Source: Anaerolineae bacterium (GTDB lineage: Bacteria > Chloroflexota > Anaerolineae > DRVO01). Taken from it: a stretch of 64,000 bases of DNA. Within the stretch, counting starts at the first letter, position 1; the number at the start of each line of letters is the position of its first letter. The notes beneath the pieces were generated by a model, which searched no databases, was not told the DNA's origin, and saw only the letters and a program-made list of their open reading frames with translations. Location of the stretch: the NCBI GenBank assembly GCA_013178015.1, contig JABLXR010000030.1:51238-115237 (forward strand), read 5' to 3'. This document shows positions 2,161 to 56,662 of this stretch, piece after piece. Both the position numbers and the translations under genes were made by a program.

Positions 2161-2290
2161 TAGCCATCTCTGGTGGCTTGCCGCAGGACTGTGAGAAAGC
2201 CCCAGCCGTAGGGGCGAACCTCGTGTTCGCCCGCAGTATCCTCCGGTAGTCATCTCTAGTGGCCTGCCCCAGGACTTTGAGAAAGCCCTA
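2161..2290. repeat. Two ~44-bp imperfect direct repeats (2161-2204 and 2247-2290; tagYcatctctRgtggcYtgccNcaggactKtgagaaagcccYa) flanking a 26-bp palindromic element GTAGGGGCGAACCTCGTGTTCGCCCG (2208-2233)
   Basis: Read directly from sequence. The same 26-mer (1-2 mismatches) recurs twice in inverted orientation at 53769-53794 and 53840-53865. It lies in the divergent intergenic region between the kinase and the FHA regulator. Confidence 0.6.
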
Positions 2291-21257: not shown

Positions 21258-22334
21258 GTGACGCCACGAGAGAGGTTGCTGGCCGCCATCAACCGCAGGA
21301 AGCCGGACAGGCTGCCGAAGGCCATATCGTTCACCGAGCCAGCGCTGAGGGTATTCCGGGAGAAGACCGGGGCGACCGATCCTCAGGAGTACTTCGGGGT
21401 GGAGACCAGGTGGGTGAGCTTCGGCCCAACTAAGGTCAAGACAGACTGGACGCGGTTCCTGCCTGATCTGCCTGAGGGCGCCGAGTTCAGCGAGTGGGGG
21501 GTCGGATACCTCAAACGTCCCGACACCCACTACTTCCGATACGCGGGGCCCATGCGCAGCTTCACCACAGTGGAGCAGATCCGCTCCTATCCCTATCCGG
21601 ACATCACCGCCGACTACCGCCATGCCGACCTGGAAGAACGGGTGGCAGCCCTGCAGGACCGGGGCTACGCCGTGGCCGGAAGCGTGACCCCCGAGGGTGG
21701 TGCCTTCTTCGAGGCCGCCTGGGTACTACGCGACTTGGATCAGCTTCTGGTTGATTTCGCCGCCAACCCCGAGATGGCCGACGCGTTGCTGGACGAGGTG
21801 TCGGAGCGCAGCGCCTTCATGTCCCGGCGGTTTGCCGAAGCCGGCGTGGACCTCATCTACACTGGTGACGACGTCGGCACGGAGCGGGCCATGCTCATCA
21901 GCCCGGCCACCTGGCGCCGGTTCATCAAGCCCCGGTTCGCCCGGGTCATCGCGGCGGCGCGGGAGGTGCGGCCCGACATCCCCGTGTTCTACCACTGCGA
22001 CGGCTACTGCGAGCCCATCATCCCGGAGCTGATCGAGATCGGGGTGACCATCCTCAACCCGGTGCAGCCGGAGTGCATGGACCCCATCAAGCTCAAGCGG
22101 CGGTACGGCGACCAACTGGCGTTCTGGGGCACCATCGGCACCCAGACTACCATGCCTTTCGGCACCCCCGATGAGGTGCGGGCGGCGGTGAAGCGCATGT
22201 TCGAGACGGTGGGCGAGGGAGGGGGGTTGGTCATCGCCCCCACGCAGGTGATCGAGCCCGACGTCCCGTGGGAGAACATCGTCGCCTTCGCCGAAGCCGT
22301 GGCGGAGTGCGTTTATACGGTCGCTGACGCTTAG
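21258..22334 (+). CDS. Uroporphyrinogen-decarboxylase (URO-D) family protein, MtaA/CmuA-like methyltransferase-type
   Basis: N-terminal ERLLAAINRRKPDRLP and overall URO-D-like length (~358 aa). The genomic context (MttB-family neighbour) fits the methylcobamide-type methyltransferase subfamily rather than HemE. GTG start with AGGAGGG Shine-Dalgarno. Confidence 0.7.
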   Translation: MTPRERLLAAINRRKPDRLPKAISFTEPALRVFREKTGATDPQEYFGVETRWVSFGPTKVKTDWTRFLPDLPEGAEFSEWGVGYLKRPDTHYFRYAGPMRSFTTVEQIRSYPYPDITADYRHADLEERVAALQDRGYAVAGSVTPEGGAFFEAAWVLRDLDQLLVDFAANPEMADALLDEVSERSAFMSRRFAEAGVDLIYTGDDVGTERAMLISPATWRRFIKPRFARVIAAAREVRPDIPVFYHCDGYCEPIIPELIEIGVTILNPVQPECMDPIKLKRRYGDQLAFWGTIGTQTTMPFGTPDEVRAAVKRMFETVGEGGGLVIAPTQVIEPDVPWENIVAFAEAVAECVYTVADA

Positions 22335-49272: not shown

Positions 49273-50722
49273 GGTAGAAGTCTTGTGGCTCCGTGCGAGG
49301 ACCGGCCGACTCGAAGCGGGGCTGGCCGGCGCCAGCGACAGCGATCTCGCGGCCGATGCCCACGTCCCAAAACAGGTGAGCGCCCGCGCCCCAGCGGGCG
49401 ACCAGATCTTCGGTAGATCGCCAGGAAGTAGCCCGAGTCCAGCCTGTGAGGGTATCGCCGGGCTCACCCACGCGCCAGATGTGGACCACGTACCACAGGT
49501 CCGGGGCGAGATCGCCCACTCCGGTCCACATCAGGATGAGCTCGCGGGGGACGACCCTGGCACCGCCCCGCGGCGAGAGAGGCTCCAGGGCTCGAGGCTG
49601 GGCCGGCCCGCCCAGGGACAGCAGGGAGGCGGTGGCCGTGGGGGCGGCCGCCAAGGCGGTGGCTCCGGCGGTGGGGACAGCCTCGGCCGCCGCCGCGGTA
49701 GGGGTGGGATCCGGGCCGCCCGACTGCGAGGGCACGGGAACTCTCACTTTCTGGCCCACGCTCAATATGGTGTACTTGGTAAGCCCGGGGTTCGCAGCCA
49801 GGATCTCCTCCAAGGTGGTACCGTACTTGTTGGCCAGATAACCCAGAGTATCGCCCCGCTCGATGGCGTGCTCGATGAACTGGGGCTCGGGGGTGGCAGT
49901 GGGCTCTGGTTCAGGTGCAGCTGAGGCCGTTTCCGCAGTCGGCGTGGGGACAACGATCTTCTGCCCCAGGCTCAGGATGCTGTTGCGGGTGAGCCCGGGG
50001 TTGGCAGCTATGATGTCGCTAACGGTGGTACCGTACTTATCGGCCAGATACAGGAGGTTGTCACCCGTTTCAACGGTGTGTACGAGGGGCTCGGCAACCG
50101 GGAGGGGCTCCTGGTCGGCAGCCTCGCCGGATGCTGAAGCAGGTATGACGATCTCCTGCCCCACCCGCAGGATGGAGCGCTCCGTCAGGCCCGGGTTGGC
50201 AGCTAGGATGTCCTGCACCTCCAAGTCGTACTGGAGGGCGATGGAGCCCAGCACGTCTCCCGATTGAACCACGTGGACCCTAGGCCCGGTCGTGGGGGCA
50301 GGGGTGTCCAGCGGCTCTGGAGTTGGGGTCTGCGTCCCGGTAGGAGAGGACGTGGCCGTAGGGGTAGGGGGGACTGGAGTGGACGTGACCAATCGGACCG
50401 TCCCAGGGGAGGGTGTGGCCGCGTCCACAGCTTGCTGTGCCGTTTCCTTCGCCGGGGGCGAGAGGGCCGCCATGGCCACAGCGGCTGGCTTCCCTGGCGT
50501 CGCGTTCGGAGCGCCGGACGAAGGCTCTGCGCTCCCCGACCTATCGCGCAACCCGGCCAGCACCGCTCCTGCTACCATCGCCAGTGCCACCAGAGCCAGG
50601 GCCGGCTGAAGGTAGCTGGGTGACCGCAGTTCCTGTCCGCACAGGAGGCAGGACCGAGCCTGCTGGGCGACGCGAGCCCCACAACGGGGGCACCGACGAG
50701 GCTCTCGGTTAATGGTTGCCAT
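49259..50722 (-). CDS. LysM-repeat protein with N-terminal zinc ribbon and TM anchor (three LysM domains, Pro/Thr-rich linkers, C-terminal globular domain)
   Basis: N-terminal CPRCG...CLLCG zinc ribbon then TM. Three LysM motifs (VQSGDVLGSIALQY, VETGDNLLYLADKYGTT, IERGDTLGYLANKYGTT). Confidence 0.8.
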   Translation of the reverse strand: MATINREPRRCPRCGARVAQQARSCLLCGQELRSPSYLQPALALVALAMVAGAVLAGLRDRSGSAEPSSGAPNATPGKPAAVAMAALSPPAKETAQQAVDAATPSPGTVRLVTSTPVPPTPTATSSPTGTQTPTPEPLDTPAPTTGPRVHVVQSGDVLGSIALQYDLEVQDILAANPGLTERSILRVGQEIVIPASASGEAADQEPLPVAEPLVHTVETGDNLLYLADKYGTTVSDIIAANPGLTRNSILSLGQKIVVPTPTAETASAAPEPEPTATPEPQFIEHAIERGDTLGYLANKYGTTLEEILAANPGLTKYTILSVGQKVRVPVPSQSGGPDPTPTAAAAEAVPTAGATALAAAPTATASLLSLGGPAQPRALEPLSPRGGARVVPRELILMWTGVGDLAPDLWYVVHIWRVGEPGDTLTGWTRATSWRSTEDLVARWGAGAHLFWDVGIGREIAVAGAGQPRFESAGPRTEPQDFYLGAD

Positions 50723-52442
50723 GGGGATTCCTGCTAGTATGATCCCGCCCGGGCGACAGGCCTAGAACGGCAATGCCCATCACTGCTGCTAGACTAACCC
50801 AATCTGAGGCCAGGCGCAAGGGGGTCTCACCGAAATGGATGGTGACCCGGTGTTCGCCCGCCGGCAGGTCGAGGGCGATGACCCCTAGGGGGCCTGCTGG
50901 GCGGACCGGTGCAGGAACCCCGTCCACGTAAGCCCGCCATCCCGGGTAGTAGTACGTGTGGAAACGAAGCTCCCCCGCCGTCTCCGAGCGCACCCGGACG
51001 ATCTGCACGTGTCCCCCCAGGTGGAGGGGCTCGACCGAGGCGCCCGGTGCGTCTGTCTCCGCCAGAGGTAGCGCCTCTCCGGCCAGGTAGGCGGCAACTT
51101 TGGGCGAATCCTGAGGCATGTGCTGGGTCCAGGCGGTCATGCCTCGCATGTCGGTGTACTCGAGCTCGAACTCCACCGTGCCCACTGGCTGTTCGGCGCG
51201 GGGGTCGGGGGCGGTATGCTGGGGGCGGGCGTAGGGCAGGCTCGCGACCACGACGGCCAGCGCCAGCAGCAATGCGCTCCCCTGCCCCGCTCGATCGGCC
51301 AGGCGGGCACCGGCGATGGCGGCCAGGCCGGCGGCACAGAGCGCAACTATCCCGAGCAGGCGCCAGGGGAACTGCGCCAGCGACAATAGGGACACGGCGC
51401 GCCATATCGCCCCACTGGCTCCGGTCATCAGGAAGGTGTAGGTCACGAGCCCGAGACCGAGCAGCACCGCCGCAGGGCGGAAGCAGCGACTGCGAGTCCC
51501 CAGGGCCAGGCCCGCCAGGGACAGGGCTACGGGGGCGAGGCCCTGCTGGAACGGCATGGTATCTTCAGGGCCAGCCACAGCGTAGCCGTAATCCCACAGT
51601 GGCGACAACAGCTGGCCCGGGTAGACGAAGTGATCGGTGAGGTTGTAGGTGGCCCTGGTCCACTGCTCCTGCCTGATGTAACCGCGCTCGGCCAGCGAGG
51701 GGATGAGGGAGAAGGCTGCCAGAGCGACCCCTAGAGCCCCGGCCGCGATCGGCCCCAGCCACGCTCTCGCCGACGGCAGGCGGCCGGAGGCAGCCAGGGC
51801 GATGATGATGGCGGCTCCCAGGAGAGGGGTGAAGAGCAAGGCGGTGACGTTGTGGGCCGCCAGCAGCAGCCCGTAGGTGGCGGCGGCAGCGGCGATTCGA
51901 CGGCGTGAGGGAGCCGTCGCCAGTGACCAGAAAGCCCACAAAGCCCAGGGGAAGAGGGAGAGGGCCCAGGACTCGGCCAGGGCGGCGCGAACGTAGATGT
52001 CCACGAATCGGTAAGGAGCATAGGTGTAGACGACGGCAGCCACCGCCGCCGCGGCGCCGAACCCTCTCGAATCGGTCGGTGCCTGACGTAGCAGCGCTTC
52101 GGCCAGGAGGAACATGCCCACGCAGGACACCAGGATAGACAGGGCGAAAGCCGCTTTGATGGCAGCGGCGATCCCCAGGCCGGTCAGGTGGAACCCCTCA
52201 GCCACGTAGTAGGCCAGGGGGGAGTAGAAGACGAAGGTGGGGTAACCGTAGCCCAGGGCATGGTCGGGCCCCCAGCGGGGGATGAGTACGCCGTCGGCGA
52301 CGGCCCGGTCGAACTGGACCAGGAAGAACAGGGTATGGGGTCCGTCGTGGGCGCCCAGAAAGTAGCCCGGGGCCAGCAGAGGCCAGGCGGCGAAGACGGC
52401 CAGGATGAGGGCCAGGCCTAGGTAACGGCGGCGCTCGCTCAT
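50709..52442 (-). CDS. Polytopic GT-C-like membrane protein, paralog 1 of 3 (putative envelope glycosyltransferase; PTPS-related/DUF-type)
   Basis: Many TM helices. Conserved N-terminal block shared with paralog 2 (PGYFLGAHDGPHTLFFLVQFDRAVADGVLIPRWGPDHALGYGYPTFVFYSPLAYY). Probable ATG at 52442 overlapping the upstream stop (ATGA). Confidence 0.7.
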   Translation of the reverse strand: MSERRRYLGLALILAVFAAWPLLAPGYFLGAHDGPHTLFFLVQFDRAVADGVLIPRWGPDHALGYGYPTFVFYSPLAYYVAEGFHLTGLGIAAAIKAAFALSILVSCVGMFLLAEALLRQAPTDSRGFGAAAAVAAVVYTYAPYRFVDIYVRAALAESWALSLFPWALWAFWSLATAPSRRRIAAAAATYGLLLAAHNVTALLFTPLLGAAIIIALAASGRLPSARAWLGPIAAGALGVALAAFSLIPSLAERGYIRQEQWTRATYNLTDHFVYPGQLLSPLWDYGYAVAGPEDTMPFQQGLAPVALSLAGLALGTRSRCFRPAAVLLGLGLVTYTFLMTGASGAIWRAVSLLSLAQFPWRLLGIVALCAAGLAAIAGARLADRAGQGSALLLALAVVVASLPYARPQHTAPDPRAEQPVGTVEFELEYTDMRGMTAWTQHMPQDSPKVAAYLAGEALPLAETDAPGASVEPLHLGGHVQIVRVRSETAGELRFHTYYYPGWRAYVDGVPAPVRPAGPLGVIALDLPAGEHRVTIHFGETPLRLASDWVSLAAVMGIAVLGLSPGRDHTSRNPHGNH

Positions 52443-54478
52443 GGCCGCATGGCTCCGGGGCGGCAGAGGATGCGGGCCACCGCGGCCAGGCCGTACGCCA
52501 TCCCCGTGAGCAAGGTCAGACCGGTTCCCAGCCGCCGGACGGGCGTGTCCTCGAATACCAGAAGCAGGACATGGCGGCCTTGGGGCACAGGCACGCTGAT
52601 GAGCCCCAGTTCTCCCTCCGGCACGACCGGGGCCGTGCCGGAGACCTCGCCTGTGTCCTCGTCCAGGATGTAGGCGTTCCAGCCGGGGTGGTAGAAGGTG
52701 TGGAAGCGGATGACCTGAGCGTCGTCTTCGGCCTGGAACCACACCCTCTCGTAGGTGGTACCCATCTCCAGCGAATGCACCGCCAGGCGACCGGTAGCGT
52801 AGGCTTGGACGTAGTCCACCTTGGTGGTGATCTCGATCCCGGCCATGATCTGATCTGCCAGCGGCGACCAGCGGGGGATCTCCTGCACCCAGGCGGTGGA
52901 GCCGGTCATCTCATCGGCGCTCTGTTGGAAGCGCATCAGTCCCTGAAGGGACACGGGTCCCTCAGGTGGGGGCCGGACCTCGCTGTGCAAATAGGGGTAG
53001 ACCGGCAGGATGACCAGCAGGGCCCAGAGCCCGGTGAGGGCCAGGGCGCTGCGATCGGGGTGCCAGCGGGTGAAAGGGCCCGTTCCTAGGAAGGCAAGGC
53101 AGACGATGGTGAGCGCCAGCAGTCGCCAGGGGAACTGAGCGAACCTCACTAGCCCCAGGGCATCCCACACTGGTTCGGAGAGGGGGAGCATCAGGAAGAC
53201 GACGCCGAGGGTGACGGCGCCTAGGTACAGGGCACTCCGGCGCCACGCCTGCGGCAGCCGCGGCCAGTAAAGAAGGCTAAGCGCTGCCAGCGTCAGAGGG
53301 GCCAGGCCCAGCTGGAAGGACATGCCATCGTCCGGTCCCGGGAGGCTCACTCCGAACCCCCAGTCGAGGCGGAAGAGCTGGAAGGGATAGACGAAGTGGT
53401 GGCGATACTCGTAGTAGCCACCGACCCACTGGTCGGTGCGGACGTAAGCGTACTCCAGGAAGGCGGGCAGCCAGAAGATGGCGCTCAGCCCCAACCCCAG
53501 GAGCACGGCGCCGGCAGCAGGCGCCATGGTATGGATGGCGTGACCCAGAACCGAGGGCCAGGACTGGCGGGAGAGCGGCCGCCACGTCGGGGTCGAGCGG
53601 CAGAGGTGCCAGGCTCGGAGCAGAGTGTAGCCGCCCAGGATGGGAGAGAAGAGCAGCGCCACCAGGTTGCTGCTCAGCATCAGCCCGGCGTAGGCTAGCC
53701 CAGCCAGCAGAACCCCCGTGACGTTCGGGAGACGATGGGCTCGTCCCAGATCTGCCTGGGCCCCTGCCGTAGGGGCGAACCTTGTGTTCGCCCGTTTCAA
53801 CGCCATGTTCGCCCGCTTGTGCCTCAAGCGGATGCGTTGCGGGCGAACACAAGGTTCGCCCCTACGGTCGGTGGGCCGGGGTGTGGGTTCGGCCGTATGG
53901 TCGCTGGGGTGGGGTGCCATGGGTGGCGCCGGGGAGCGTTGGCGCAGGCCCGGGTAGAGGCGCCCGAAGGCCCAGAGGCACAGGGGCACAAAGGCCAGGG
54001 CCACCGTCTCTGCCAGGGAAGCCCGCACGTAGAGGTCGGCCAGATGATAGGGAGCGTAAAGGTACAAGAGGGCCCCCAGCAGCGCCCCGGGCGGATGGCT
54101 GTAGAGGCGAAGCCACAGGTAGGCCGTGAGGGCCGAGGCCACCGCTGCCAGGCCGAACACCCCCTTGACGGCCTCTACCAGACCCAGACCAAGCAGATGC
54201 AGGGCCTCGCCCAGGTAGGAGGACAGTGGGCCGTAGATGTTGAAGAAGGGATAGCCGTAGCCGAAGGTGAAGTCTGGCGCCCACCGGGGATAGAGGATGC
54301 CGTCCTGGATGGCGCGGTCGAACTGATGCAGGAAGTAGACGCTGTGGCGGGCGTCCTGGGCGCCCCAGTGGTAGCCGGGCATGAACAGGGGCCCGACGCT
54401 GAATAGGGAGAGGGCCAGGAGGAGTAACACCCAGACCCACTCCGGCACCGCCTCTATCGCGGTCCGATCAGTCCTCAC
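52439..54478 (-). CDS. Polytopic GT-C-like membrane protein, paralog 2 of 3, with ~70-aa lineage-specific insertion
   Basis: N-terminal block PGYHWGAQDARHSVYFLHQFDRAIQDGILYPRWAPDFTFGYGYPFFNIYGPLSSY is homologous to paralog 1. The insertion (…PTDRRGEPCVRPQRIRLRHKRANMALKRANTRFAPTAG…) coincides with the palindromic repeat at 53769-53865. Confidence 0.7.
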   Translation of the reverse strand: MRTDRTAIEAVPEWVWVLLLLALSLFSVGPLFMPGYHWGAQDARHSVYFLHQFDRAIQDGILYPRWAPDFTFGYGYPFFNIYGPLSSYLGEALHLLGLGLVEAVKGVFGLAAVASALTAYLWLRLYSHPPGALLGALLYLYAPYHLADLYVRASLAETVALAFVPLCLWAFGRLYPGLRQRSPAPPMAPHPSDHTAEPTPRPTDRRGEPCVRPQRIRLRHKRANMALKRANTRFAPTAGAQADLGRAHRLPNVTGVLLAGLAYAGLMLSSNLVALLFSPILGGYTLLRAWHLCRSTPTWRPLSRQSWPSVLGHAIHTMAPAAGAVLLGLGLSAIFWLPAFLEYAYVRTDQWVGGYYEYRHHFVYPFQLFRLDWGFGVSLPGPDDGMSFQLGLAPLTLAALSLLYWPRLPQAWRRSALYLGAVTLGVVFLMLPLSEPVWDALGLVRFAQFPWRLLALTIVCLAFLGTGPFTRWHPDRSALALTGLWALLVILPVYPYLHSEVRPPPEGPVSLQGLMRFQQSADEMTGSTAWVQEIPRWSPLADQIMAGIEITTKVDYVQAYATGRLAVHSLEMGTTYERVWFQAEDDAQVIRFHTFYHPGWNAYILDEDTGEVSGTAPVVPEGELGLISVPVPQGRHVLLLVFEDTPVRRLGTGLTLLTGMAYGLAAVARILCRPGAMRP
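53769..53865. repeat. Perfect 26-bp inverted repeat pair (GTAGGGGCGAACCTTGTGTTCGCCCG ... CGGGCGAACACAAGGTTCGCCCCTAC) flanking a 45-bp partly palindromic core; MITE/REP-like element embedded in-frame in a coding sequence
   Basis: Read directly. Same 26-mer family as at 2208-2233. Each arm is itself a small hairpin (GGGCGAAC...GTTCGCCC). Confidence 0.7.
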
Positions 54479-56018
54479 GGCCCAGCTCCACCGCGGTGGT
54501 TCCGTCCGACAGGGTCAGCCGTTCCCCCGTTCCCAGGTCATACAGACCCACTAACACCCGATAGCCCTCCCGAGGGCCATCGAGGTCCACGTGGACGAGA
54601 TGGTCGTCCACCACCACTTCGCCCGGGCGCCAGGACGTGGTCGGGCGGGTGCCGTCCACGGGCCAGGAATCGCGCTGGCCCCACTTGCGATCGGCCTGAT
54701 CCACCACGTGCACGAACACGGTGTAGTTGCGCTCCAGGGGCTGGGTGGCTTGCCAGAACAGACGCAGCCTGGGAGTAGCCCCGTGGCGCAAGGGGCCGTG
54801 GAGCTCGGCTCGTACCAGGAGTATGCGTCCGTCGTCGAAGGCCGCCAGGGGGCGGGCGGCCGGCGTCACTGGGCTCAGGGGGACATCCAGAAAGGGCAGG
54901 GCCAGAAGGAGGGCGAGGAGAGCCAGGGCCCCTCCGGAGAGCGCCTGGGTGGGCAAGAGCTGGACCACGGGCGGGGCGGAGGCCCACAGGAGCACGAAGG
55001 AAGCAAGGGCCACCAACTGCCAGGGACCGTCCAGGGCCCATGCGAGGCGCCCTTCCCACAGCGGGCGCGCTAACTCGGTGGACAGGAGCAGCAGCACGAC
55101 AGCGACCGCCCCCACCACGACACACCGGGCGCGGAGACCGGGCTGCACGAGCAGGCACGCGGCGGCGAAGAGCCCGACGGGGAGGAGGCCCAGTGTCAGG
55201 GGAGCGGGTACGCCCGGACCCCAGGGGGCGCTGTGCGCGGCGTAGCCGGCCGTGTGCCCGAGCCACTGGTAAGGCCAACTGAACTGGCGGAACGATGCCG
55301 ACGCAGTGCCCGGTGCGGCGATTAGACCAGCAGTTCCGGTCAGGAGCAGCCCGACCAGTGGCCGCAGGTTCACGCGGCGGTGGGCTACCAGGGCGACGGC
55401 TGCCAGAACCGCCCCGGCGATAAGGGCGAACCCGGGATGGGCTAGCCCCAGCGCCAGGCCCGGCAGTATCGGGGCCACCGAGCGCCACGAGGTTGCGCCC
55501 CCAGGCGCTGGGTAAGCCAAAGCCAGCGCCAGCCAGGGCAGCATCCCGAGGGCGAGGGACCCCCCTGGCCAACCGCGCACGTAGATGGACGCCAGTACCA
55601 TAGGCGAGCCGGCCCAGGCCAAAGCTAACCCAAGCGCAATGCTGCCCCCGGTCGCACCGCTCCGGTGGCCTCGGAAGAGGGCGAGCGCTCCGCCGACGGC
55701 CAAGAGCACGGCCAGGGCGTAGACCGCCTTCACGGCGCTCGGTCCGTCGGCGCCCATCAGGCGGAAGAGGAATGCCAGGCAGTAGGACAGGACGCCGTCG
55801 CCACCTGCAGAGCCAGTTAGGGAGGATGCGGGCAAGCCGTCAATGGGCCGGCCAGCGGCTTCCCAGGCGTAGAGGGTGTACACCGGCTGGAAGCCGGAGT
55901 GGGGCTGGAAGTACCCGGGGTAGCCCAGGGGTGCCAGCAGGAAGCCACTGAGCAGGAGCAGGGAGGCGGCGACGCGCCATCCCTGGCCCGACGCCCTGCG
56001 GTCCGCGGTTGCGCTCAC
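54468..56018 (-). CDS. Polytopic GT-C-like membrane protein, paralog 3 of 3 (more divergent)
   Basis: TM-rich. Shares the GYPGYF...Y..W N-terminal theme. Start chosen as GTG at 56018 to avoid overlap with the HD gene; the ORF is open to 56231. Confidence 0.6.
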   Translation of the reverse strand: MSATADRRASGQGWRVAASLLLLSGFLLAPLGYPGYFQPHSGFQPVYTLYAWEAAGRPIDGLPASSLTGSAGGDGVLSYCLAFLFRLMGADGPSAVKAVYALAVLLAVGGALALFRGHRSGATGGSIALGLALAWAGSPMVLASIYVRGWPGGSLALGMLPWLALALAYPAPGGATSWRSVAPILPGLALGLAHPGFALIAGAVLAAVALVAHRRVNLRPLVGLLLTGTAGLIAAPGTASASFRQFSWPYQWLGHTAGYAAHSAPWGPGVPAPLTLGLLPVGLFAAACLLVQPGLRARCVVVGAVAVVLLLLSTELARPLWEGRLAWALDGPWQLVALASFVLLWASAPPVVQLLPTQALSGGALALLALLLALPFLDVPLSPVTPAARPLAAFDDGRILLVRAELHGPLRHGATPRLRLFWQATQPLERNYTVFVHVVDQADRKWGQRDSWPVDGTRPTTSWRPGEVVVDDHLVHVDLDGPREGYRVLVGLYDLGTGERLTLSDGTTAVELGRED

Positions 56019-56074
56019 GGCCCAGACCGGCGACAGGCGTGGGCAGGAGACGCCAGAGTGTCCAAGCAGGCAGC

Positions 56075-56662
56075 CTAGCCGGGCTCGCCCGCCAGGCCCA
56101 GATCGTCGGCGATGCCCTGCATAGCCTCGAGCACGACGGCTATGTGCTCGTTGAGTTCCACCCCCAGCTCGGCAGCGCCTTGCTCGATGTCCTGCCGGTT
56201 GATGGCGGCAGCGAAGGCTTTGTCCTTCCACTTGTTGCGCACGGACTTCACCTTGACGTCCATGATGGACTTAGAGGGGCGCACCAGGGCCACGGCCGAG
56301 ATGAGCCCGGTAAGCTCGTCCACGGCGAAGAGGGCCTTGCGTAGCAGGGTGTCCCGGGGAACGCCAGCGTACTGAGCGTGGGAGAGGACATCCTGGACGA
56401 CCTCCTCCGGGTAGCCGCGTTCGCGCAGGATGCGGGCCCCGGCGAAGCAGTGCCACCTTTCCTGCGGCAGGTCGCCGCCCATCTCCGGGTGCTGCTCGAA
56501 GTCGAAGTCGTGGACCAGGCCGATAGCGCCCCAGTATTCCTCGTCCTCGCCGAACCGGCGAGCGTAAGCGCGCATAGCTGCCTCCACGGCGAGCATGTGC
56601 CGGCGCAGGCTAAGGCTTTGAATGTGCTCGGTCACCAGGCTCCAGGCCTCGTCACGGGTCAT
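56075..56662 (-). CDS. HD-domain metal-dependent phosphohydrolase
   Basis: H...HD motif (LRRHMLAVEAAM...GLVHDFDF) and downstream conserved His/Asp (HCFAGARIL, AVDEL). Confidence 0.8.
   Translation of the reverse strand: MTRDEAWSLVTEHIQSLSLRRHMLAVEAAMRAYARRFGEDEEYWGAIGLVHDFDFEQHPEMGGDLPQERWHCFAGARILRERGYPEEVVQDVLSHAQYAGVPRDTLLRKALFAVDELTGLISAVALVRPSKSIMDVKVKSVRNKWKDKAFAAAINRQDIEQGAAELGVELNEHIAVVLEAMQGIADDLGLAGEPG

Follow-up and report, generated by a model that had tools for sequence, protein, structure and literature searches.

A probable in-frame REP dimer insertion, apparently read through as a basic loop extension, in the gene for a predicted GT-C-fold membrane protein of an Anaerolineae bacterium

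MITEs, such as Correia/NEMIS, Nezha and ERIC, originate from insertion sequences with a DDE transposase and duplicate their target site. Rickettsia palindromic elements (RPEs), reportedly described by Ogata and colleagues in 2000, are selfish palindromic DNAs that lie in-frame in protein genes and are translated into surface-exposed or loop segments. Two of them, RPE-4 and RPE-6, have been treated as CGTC-type REPs (Di Nocera, De Gregorio, Rocco 2013, PMC3733652). The same study described intragenic, in-frame REPs, single or as dimers, in the uvrA, uvrB, recB and dnaE2 genes of Opitutus terrae, Thauera and Xanthomonas, where the intragenic dimers encode 20–30 residues, and proposed that they are placed in flexible loops. 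In-frame REP dimers are also known from within RayT/TnpA_REP genes of subclass 2.4 (Quentin 2018, PMC6006769), the “canonical long REP” type that corresponds to RAYT group 4 of Bertels et al. 2017. REPs of the GTAGGGGC type were assigned to this subclass in the supplement of the Quentin paper; subclass 2.4 REPs carry a 5′ GTAG and a hairpin whose bottom three pairs are G-C, form inverted dimers, and are scattered across phyla.

The locus considered here lies in a 64-kb stretch of DNA from an Anaerolineae metagenome-assembled genome (MAG), referred to as the window. Our overall reading, which we hold to be quite probable, is that a subclass 2.4-type REP dimer was inserted in-frame into a loop of a GT-C-fold protein and is read through as an Arg/Lys-rich extension. 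The inverted repeat itself has arms of 28 nt each (53767-53794 and 53840-53867) that are 100% complementary and separated by 45 nt, giving a whole element of 101 nt (53767..53867) that codes for residues ~204-238 of its host protein. The first-pass annotation had placed a 26/26-bp pair around a 45-bp core at 53769-53865; the repeat and its 45-nt interior are real, 26 is a slight undercount of arms that match at 28 of 28 positions, and the interval given is the GTAG-to-CTAC span of the dimer.

In each arm, GTAG is followed by a stem of 8 bp with a GC foot, closed by a CTTGT loop. Unit 1 (53769..53793, + strand) reads GTAG followed by GGGCGAAC, CTTGT and GTTCGCCC, exactly matches a consensus 25-mer known across phyla, and scores 45.3 bits (E = 5e-12) with our covariance model, R1; unit 2 (53841..53865, − strand), the second arm of the inverted repeat, also scores 45.3 bits and is inverted relative to unit 1, with the GTAG heads facing outwards. 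In the frame of the host gene, unit 1 translates as RGEPCVRP and unit 2 as ANTRFAPT. The spacer (53795..53839, as read from the sequence) contains a re-duplicated REP half-arm, TGTTCGCCCG, at 53806-53815 and an inner hairpin, CCGCTTG/CAAGCGG, at 53813-53819 and 53825-53831, the stem of which is present in the computed fold; moreover, spacer positions 9-23 give short BLAST matches to the 3′ arms of REPs at other loci. Computed folding energies for the region are −60.4 kcal/mol for the DNA (z = −13.4) and −91.3 kcal/mol for the sense-strand RNA, with a 28-bp perfect duplex possible in the latter. The hallmark of GTAG-type REPs is a conserved 5′ GT[AG]G directly next to the base of a GC-rich hairpin (20–40 nt), which is present here twice, and that of a REPIN is two inverted REPs able to form one long hairpin; the palindrome is a REPIN-like dimer of canonical GTAG-type REPs. 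Such RayT-associated families are further characterized by many copies dispersed through one genome and by a cognate RayT gene, typically with the same REPs on its flanks. It departs from the extragenic location expected of REPs, lying as it does inside an intact 679-aa ORF, which is a documented exception and not disqualifying.

The dimer resembles MITEs in being small (~100 nt) and non-autonomous, with inverted termini and a location in or near genes; unlike them, its arms are self-folding GTAG hairpins. A MITE is ruled out by these REP hairpins and by the lack of a direct repeat at the borders (...CCCCTG / element / TCGGTG...). The resemblance to RPEs, as selfish palindromic DNA that lies in-frame in protein genes, is one of behavior only, with RPEs being either CGTC-tagged or, as for RPE-1, longer, and belonging to the Rickettsiales. 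An intrinsic terminator is ruled out as well, with no T-run following the hairpin on either strand, and a search of Rfam for known structured RNAs returned only sub-threshold miRNA-hairpin models (18-21 bits versus gathering cutoffs of 56-114). An intein or intron was likewise discarded, given that the ~68 extra residues of the host protein contain no such domains and are predicted to be disordered.

A second locus of the same family occurs in the window. As the first-pass annotation had proposed for 2208-2233, a single intergenic REP lies at 2208..2232 (+ strand), where it differs from the dimer units by one mismatch in its loop (CTCGT) and scores 44.3 versus 45.3 bits with R1. The 22-mer core occurs three times in the window versus 0.00 expected from shuffles, and the 64 kb holds three REP units at two loci versus 0.00 to 0.02 expected; these three are the only strong covariance-model copies, all at 44-45 bits. 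Weak model matches at 49698-49721 and 22211-22243 were set aside as chance, being without a hairpin on reading. A tblastn search with three RayT probes and an E. coli YafM sequence found no RayT homolog within the 64 kb.

Beyond the window, the motif was found in at least 120 stretches spanning more than 10 phyla. Among the matches listed there are 161 REP copies, of which 104 have exactly the CTTGT loop. Heads-out dimers, their units separated by 8-76 nt, are frequent among these copies and occur in many genomes. All-against-all ORF clustering found no conserved neighbor gene at 120 REP loci, with the largest shared cluster present in 10 of them. The family both adjoins and lies within RayT genes, as do subclass 2.4 REPs: the RayT genes at loci L040, L131/L132 and L129 have REPs of this family within them and no more than 60 nt away, while RayT-like genes at L065, L070 and L084, at 2.5-4 kb from the REP, were not counted as associated. 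Moreover, 87 of 120 RayT homologs encode the peptide RGEPCVRP...GEHKVRPY about 10 residues past the HUH motif. These likenesses identify the window element as belonging to the REP type associated with the RayT/TnpA_REP tyrosine (HUH-Y1) transposases of subclass 2.4. It differs from the described subclass 2.4 REPs in that the window copy is intragenic, in a translated frame, with no RayT within 64 kb.

In-frame dimers of the same family also occur in a FeoB gene and in a YfhO-family gene, and a count over about 120 random loci gave three in-frame cases beyond that of the window. The view of the first-pass annotation that an in-frame insertion is a notable exception was therefore overstated, with intragenic in-frame REPs already published (PMC3733652, PMC6006769) and three more found here. 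The present case agrees with those of PMC3733652 in that the REP lies within an ORF whose frame is unbroken, and differs from them in that its host gene encodes a GT-C membrane protein rather than a repair or replication function and its source is an Anaerolineae MAG. A check of the PMC3733652 supplementary lists for the peptides that this REP family encodes gave zero matches, as did a full-text literature search with the REP 12-mer.

The host gene (52439..54478, − strand) is annotated by NCBI as one protein of 679 aa (NPV08779.1 / HPY83_12570), with the REP dimer inside it and zero stops or frameshifts over its 2 kb. AlphaFold models the protein with a confident GT-C fold (pTM 0.87), and Foldseek against the PDB matches it to AftA, AglB, PglB, STT3, ALG12, ArnT and DPY19 with probabilities of 0.96-1.00, at TM-scores of only about 0.23-0.38. 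Residues D42, D69 and E91 are invariant. The model has the features by which we recognized a GT-C glycosyltransferase fold, namely a multi-helix membrane domain, a long first external loop with conserved acidic residues, a C-terminal soluble domain, and structural likeness to GT-C proteins; the protein is thus predicted to be of this fold and a putative enzyme, in keeping with the earlier description of it as GT-C-like. At the sequence level it shows a weak PTPS_related/GT39-like signal, with its match to Pfam PTPS_related (18.4 bits) falling below the cutoff and that of the downstream paralog (31.5 bits) above it.

This paralog (50709..52442, − strand; orthologous genes encode 566-568 aa) is PTPS_related and 34-46% identical to the host protein, and its likely start, an ATG at 52442, overlaps the host stop codon (ATGA). 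Upstream, with an 11-nt overlap, lies another membrane-protein gene (54468..56231, − strand) that forms an operon-like cluster with the host gene in a conserved gene order. The three genes had been described as tandem paralogs, which is apt for the downstream gene; the upstream one is merely a distant relative of the other two (local E about 1e-5 to 1e-6).

Comparison with orthologs places the dimer within a larger, lineage-specific segment. Affine-gap pairwise DNA alignments and codon alignments against three closest orthologs (L001, L004 and L003), together with a census of loop lengths, delimit a loop-coding segment at approximately 53714..53951 (− strand) that amounts to ~204 nt, or about 68 codons, more than in these orthologs. 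The ~70-aa extra segment of the first-pass annotation is thereby upheld in its size, although not in its attribution to the palindrome, which supplies only about 34 of the ~68 codons, i.e., half. The remaining ~100 nt (53714-53766 and 53868-53951) is non-palindromic, Pro/Arg-rich coding sequence for which a short-word BLAST search of the window and of all the loci gave zero matches, and in which the covariance model, run with filters off, detected no degenerate REPs up to E = 10; that these flanks came from a BIME-like cluster or from a duplicated source is accordingly unsupported. Since this ~100 nt has neither REP likeness nor a detectable source, either the event was more complex than a 101-nt insertion or the loop had already expanded. 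No empty-site allele of the dimer was found.

Five orthologs at 78-81% identity, and over 100 that are more distant, do not have the segment, with gene order conserved; in orthologs that are 65-81% identical and share this gene order, the ~68 codons are absent from the insert site. A short ancestral loop is present in 59 of 71 scorable homologs, and the insert in one genome among about 1,070 homologs. The ortholog alignment rules out a native ancestral loop and bears out the proposal that the insertion is lineage-specific. The loop is nevertheless variable in length, with 5 to 32 extra residues among orthologs, and several others have expansions of 14-29 residues; no REP remnants were found in the longer loops of orthologs P0007, P0013, P0015 and P0016. 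One ortholog, P0011, carries a decayed REP doublet in the same loop, in a gene still under purifying selection. This doublet, of opposite dimer geometry, represents an insertion independent of that in the window genome, and as the older case it indicates that REP inserts can persist in a constrained gene.

It could be objected that the palindrome, or the join at a repeat, was made by metagenome assembly or binning. The source is indeed a MAG, and repeats and inverted repeats are classic misassembly sites. This objection is scarcely credible, however, because the two flanks are parts of one gene, share its frame and orientation and are collinear with orthologs, the identical 679-aa protein is on record in the NCBI and Logan assemblies, and heads-out REP dimers are common in many independent genomes.

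In the AlphaFold model, the insert sits between helices 155-172 and 253-269 and is placed peripherally, with pLDDT below 50 at residues 202-225 and 230-238 and 43-55 over the insert as a whole. It is therefore predicted to be an unstructured loop, modelled at low confidence, that joins membrane helices four and five. The loop has 16 K+R versus 5 D+E, as expected from its earlier description as basic and Arg-rich, and, judged by helix count and by the positive-inside rule, probably faces the cytoplasm. Tryptic digestion of a translated insert would yield peptides specific to it, such as GEPCVRPQR and FAPTAGAQADLGR.

Under the preferred reading, the REP dimer would have arrived by RayT-mediated mobilization of single-stranded DNA and entered the stretch that encodes a short loop linking membrane helices four and five of a GT-C-fold protein. 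The extra sequence preserves the frame, and no stop codon occurs in the frames used (RGEPCVRP...ANTRFAPT), such that the gene would have stayed one ORF, with the dimer apparently translated into an unstructured, Arg/Lys-rich loop extension. Because the arms are still identical, this arrival may well have been recent. The first-pass claims that the palindrome was inserted in-frame and apparently exonised, and that the reading frame was preserved, agree with its absence from orthologs, with a frame open on both sides of the insert within the single ORF, and with the GT-C fold of the product.

The insertion might instead have inactivated the gene, by killing it or silencing its mRNA, with the frame left open by luck in a very young pseudogene whose loss is covered by two neighboring paralogs. 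Arms that are 100% identical would have left little time for decay to appear, and two of three frames through a REP are without stops, which makes an open frame not improbable. A 28-bp RNA duplex is long enough to be cut by RNase III or to obstruct ribosomes, and the sense RNA may form just such a perfect duplex (−91 kcal/mol). A paralog lies directly downstream, and the dN branch of the window lineage is somewhat longer, at about 0.07 versus 0.04. The 2-kb gene is free of stops and frameshifts, though, and its dN/dS relative to the nearest ortholog (0.16) is no higher than that between two insert-free orthologs (0.18), a value that mostly reflects pre-insertion history given that the insertion is apparently recent. 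The insert, moreover, occupies a length-variable and peripherally modelled loop; the P0011 gene has remained intact and constrained long after a similar insertion; and RayT, FeoB and YfhO genes with a REP are likewise intact. On this evidence, we regard inactivation as unlikely.

A further idea is that of a selected function, whether as an mRNA hairpin tuning translationally coupled genes or as an Arg-rich cytoplasmic loop giving a new interaction. REPs are known to stabilize upstream mRNA and to modulate translation, a literature precedent that fits the overlaps of the three genes (ATGA and 11 nt); moreover, two independent REP-doublet insertions have occurred in the same loop in different lineages, and the 16 K+R in the loop agree with the positive-inside rule. 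Yet the recurrence is explained equally well by the loop’s tolerance of insertions, just one genome has the insert among about 1,070 homologs, its peptide, predicted to be disordered, follows necessarily from the REP consensus when translated, and the lack of a T-run leaves no intrinsic terminator. Such a function appears highly improbable. A wider conjecture, which we consider distinctly doubtful, is that the loop between the fourth and fifth helices is a recurrent landing site for subclass 2.4-type REP dimers, with REP exonisation giving rise to novel cytoplasmic loops of positive charge that selection retains, and possibly to an mRNA-level switch in the coupled three-gene cluster. Returning to the in-frame insertion that is read through, we infer that its effect on the protein was neutral or mildly deleterious rather than adaptive.

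The locus calls for no new mechanism, since both REPs lying in-frame and the RayT subclass with such REPs have been published before. For annotation, it serves as a warning that the peptides RGEPCVRP, GEHKVRPY, ANTRFAPT, VGANLVFA and GRTQGSPL are marks of translated REPs, and that REP inserts break Pfam matches, with the host protein and the L040 RayT both falling under their family cutoffs. For the organism and the protein family, the case appears to be one of selfish palindromic DNA turned into protein sequence, previously un-noted for the Chloroflexota (Anaerolineae) and for GT-C membrane enzymes.

The palindrome that the first-pass annotation reported at 53769-53865 as an in-frame insertion is real, and its arms are 100% complementary around a spacer of 45 nt. 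The positions first assigned captured the outer GTAG...CTAC boundaries, but the full 28-nt arms are wider, at 53767-53794 and 53840-53867. Each arm forms its own hairpin, consisting of GTAG and an 8-bp stem (GGGCGAAC/GTTCGCCC) with the loop CTTGT. Judged by sequence, this layout is that of a textbook GTAG-type repetitive extragenic palindrome (REP), and the two inverted REPs, heads outwards, constitute a REP dimer of REPIN-like form. As single-stranded DNA, the 126-nt element region is predicted to fold at -60.4 kcal/mol (z = -13.4), and as sense-strand RNA at -91.3 kcal/mol. The spacer contains a re-duplicated half-arm, TGTTCGCCCG, at 53806-53815, together with a small inner hairpin. Neither a direct repeat flanking the dimer nor a T-run beside it was seen in the sequence, and an Rfam scan of the element region gave no matches above threshold.

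Shuffles give an expectation of 0.00 for the 22-nt core GGGGCGAACCTTGTGTTCGCCC, of which the window has three copies. A covariance model of the REP hairpin, trained on 46 variants and run with filters off, found exactly three strong copies in the whole window (44-45 bits), namely the two arms and a singleton at 2208, and no further credible copies; two weak matches were attributed to chance on reading the sequence. The singleton (2208-2232) differs by one loop base and belongs to the same family, as had been proposed. It is intergenic and bracketed by a 48-nt direct repeat (2155-2202 and 2241-2288, 88% identical, 86 nt apart), an inverted partial copy of which (15-17 nt) lies at 2029-2045. These repeats form a second, small family that has no relation to the REP.

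The dimer lies within a minus-strand gene (52439-54478) whose 679-aa ORF is identical to NPV08779.1, recorded as 'MAG: hypothetical protein HPY83_12570 [Anaerolineae bacterium]' from a 137-kb contig. The protein sequence is recorded in Logan assemblies too, and it is highly improbable that the insertion arose through misassembly. The host gene occupies the middle position among three membrane-protein genes that overlap one another, and a LysM gene comes after them; this order is kept in relatives. The three had been described as tandem paralogs; paralogy is clear for the downstream gene (34-46% identical to the host protein), but the upstream gene is only distantly related. An 11-nt overlap of the upstream and middle genes (54468-54478) and an ATGA stop/start overlap of the middle and downstream genes (52439-52442) suggest that translation of the genes is coupled. 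For the downstream gene, the mechanically called ORF (677 aa) is ~100 codons too long, and the start is likely the ATG at 52442. Pfam PTPS_related is matched above cutoff by the downstream paralog and only below threshold by the host protein. For an AlphaFold model of the latter (97 sequences; mean pLDDT 83.9, pTM 0.87), the top Foldseek matches in the PDB are all GT-C enzymes (AftA, AglB/PglB/STT3, ALG12, ArnT and DPY19), and the 'GT-C-like' label originally given is justified at the level of the predicted fold.

Among 1,072 homologs, the extra segment is found in the window protein only, and the conserved protein resumes in the same frame on both sides of it, bearing out a lineage-specific insertion with a preserved reading frame. 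From landmark to landmark, the window protein has 105 residues versus 36-37 in its five closest orthologs (78-81% identity), and the stretch is 32 residues long in 59 of the 71 scorable homologs. In DNA and codon alignments, the extra sequence falls at ~53714-53951, an excess of ~204 nt (68 codons) over the orthologous loci L001 and L004. The ~70-aa segment initially described is therefore close to the mark in length, but the REP dimer (101 nt) accounts only for residues ~204-238, with the peptide D-RRGEPCVRP-QRIRLRHKRANMALK-RANTRFAPT-A. The remaining ~100 nt (53714-53766 and 53868-53951) encode PAPPMAPHPSDHTAEPTPRPT on one side and GAQADLGRAHRLPN on the other. This companion sequence is lineage-specific and Pro/Arg-rich in its coding, and the longer flank is rich in G-runs on the plus strand. 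The covariance model found no REP character in it, and searches of the window and of all fetched loci gave no matches to it. Either the loop was already enlarged in this lineage when the REP dimer arrived, or additional DNA came in with the same event; other orthologs have unexplained expansions of 5 to 29 residues in the same loop.

The insert is the only long low-confidence stretch of the structural model (pLDDT 43-55), joining helix 155-172 to helix 253-269. By helix counting, with the N-terminus set inside the cell and the first loop, with its invariant acidic residues, outside, the insert loop would lie on the cytoplasmic side. It is basic, as first noted, with 16 K+R versus 5 D+E, which fits the positive-inside rule, as does an Arg conserved in the short loop of the ancestral form. 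The host ORF has no stops and no frameshifts, and its dN/dS is 0.16 against the nearest ortholog, compared with 0.18 between two insert-free orthologs. The arms have not diverged from each other, so the insertion is probably recent, and the low dN/dS would therefore mostly reflect earlier history and be no proof of present function. The 28-bp RNA duplex could be a target for RNase III or make ribosomes stall, and a very young pseudogene or silencing at the mRNA level is a conceivable but unlikely account of the gene's state.

Scanning one genome per species for the exact pattern GTAGGGGCGAAC-N5-GTTCGCCC gave matches in at least 120 stretches. Among the matches listed, hosts include Armatimonadota, Desulfobacterota, Deinococcota, Chloroflexota, Planctomycetota, Acidobacteriota, cyanobacteria, Bacteroidota and one Asgard MAG. 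In the same set, the loop CTTGT is identical in 104 of 161 copies, many copies form heads-out dimers (spacers 8-76 nt), and there are some 'double-foot' units (GTAG...CTAC). No neighbour gene is common to the REP loci among the matches listed, which fits the expectation for dispersed non-autonomous elements. The exact 25-mer GTAGGGGCGAACCTTGTGTTCGCCC, loop included, is common to more than 10 phyla (L005-L124), including a Promethearchaeota (Asgard) MAG (L027); such cross-phylum identity is unusually strong for a REP, and is probably due to the sequence being carried within a RayT gene that moves horizontally. In distant phyla, the 3' half-arm (TGTTCGCCC plus ~10 nt) is re-duplicated in tandem after many REP copies (L005, L009, L017, L086 and L093), and the window spacer has one half-arm of this kind. 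The pattern suggests that the hairpin undergoes slippage at its 3' foot, or is repeatedly cleaved and rejoined there.

RayT (TnpA_REP) is the HUH-Y1 tyrosine transposase associated with REPs, and no RayT homolog lies within the 64-kb window. At another REP locus, L040, a RayT-like gene is preceded at a distance of 46 nt by the same REP and contains an in-frame REP dimer (843-949) just past the HUH motif. Its protein matches NF047646 at 70.8 bits in a match split in two, and was pushed under the NCBIfam cutoff by the REP insert. Queried without that insert, it has 4,667 homologs, many named 'REP element-mobilizing transposase RayT'. Among the best 120 of these, 87 carry RGEPCVRP...GEHKVRPY or stem-covarying variants ~10 residues after HUH, including compensatory changes such as GDHKDRPY. 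In-frame dimers were also found at the DNA level in two more RayT loci: L131 2473-2579 (L131/L132), with a second dimer ~30 nt upstream of the gene, and L129 4265-4322, with a weak REP-like match (14.3 bits) directly downstream. Immediately downstream of the L040 RayT gene, at 1245-1290, is a different GTAG palindrome, GGGTGGGCATGGCCC...GGTGGGCGATGCCCACCCTAC, which shows a single RayT gene surrounded by several REP families. TnpA_REP subclass 2.4 (RAYT group 4) has both double-foot REPs and canonical long REPs with a foot of three G-C pairs, is spread patchily across phyla and, uniquely, carries REPs in-frame inside the tnpA_REP gene; many GTAGGGGC-type REPs are listed under it in a supplementary table (Quentin et al. 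2018, PMC6006769). The element's family matches this subclass exactly, being long and GC-footed, double-foot, cross-phylum and in-frame in RayT.

The first-pass annotation had presented an in-frame coding palindrome as a notable exception, a view that is overstated: intragenic GTAG and CGTC REPs have already been catalogued, more than half of them dimers or groups coding 20-30 residues, with a flexible-loop location argued for them and some equated with Rickettsia RPEs (Di Nocera et al. 2013, PMC3733652). Precedents within the same family were drawn from about 120 random loci. A REP dimer is in-frame in the FeoB iron transporter gene of a Tepidisphaeraceae MAG (L061 1831-1903), encoding VGANLVFA...GRTQGSPL between the FeoB_N and Gate domains, and a double-foot REP is in-frame in the gene for a 977-aa YfhO-family membrane protein of a Chloroflexi MAG (L072 4333-4361). 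Most pertinently, the host-protein ortholog P0011 (66% identical; L003 1280-1342, ENA ERZ27247683 k141_359734) has a decayed REP doublet in-frame in the same loop, heads-in with GTAG heads 11 nt apart (29.4 and 15.4 bits), encoding GEHAGLPLP...VGADLGVRP; its gene is intact, with dN/dS of 0.22-0.30. Because closer relatives of both proteins are without any REP, the two insertions are independent events.

The best-supported reading, and in our estimate a quite likely one, is that a RayT-type REP dimer was copied into the DNA for a short, permissive and probably cytoplasmic loop of the host protein. Mobilization would have proceeded through HUH-Y1 cleavage and joining of single-stranded hairpin DNA at GTAG, a step established for E. 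coli TnpA_REP and inferred for the window element from its REP family. On each strand, two of the three reading frames through the REP consensus lack stop codons, and the insertion as a whole added a multiple of three nucleotides; therefore, the gene stayed open. The element would now be translated as a disordered, basic loop extension, the effect of which is likely neutral or mildly costly, and a selected regulatory or structural role for the dimer is very unlikely. The original interpretation of an in-frame palindromic insertion was thus essentially right, although it can be made more precise and the case is less unusual than was assumed. Modest extra interest lies in the recurrence in the same loop of P0011, in the unexplained ~100 nt of companion sequence beside the dimer, and in the striking cross-phylum identity of the REP 25-mer.
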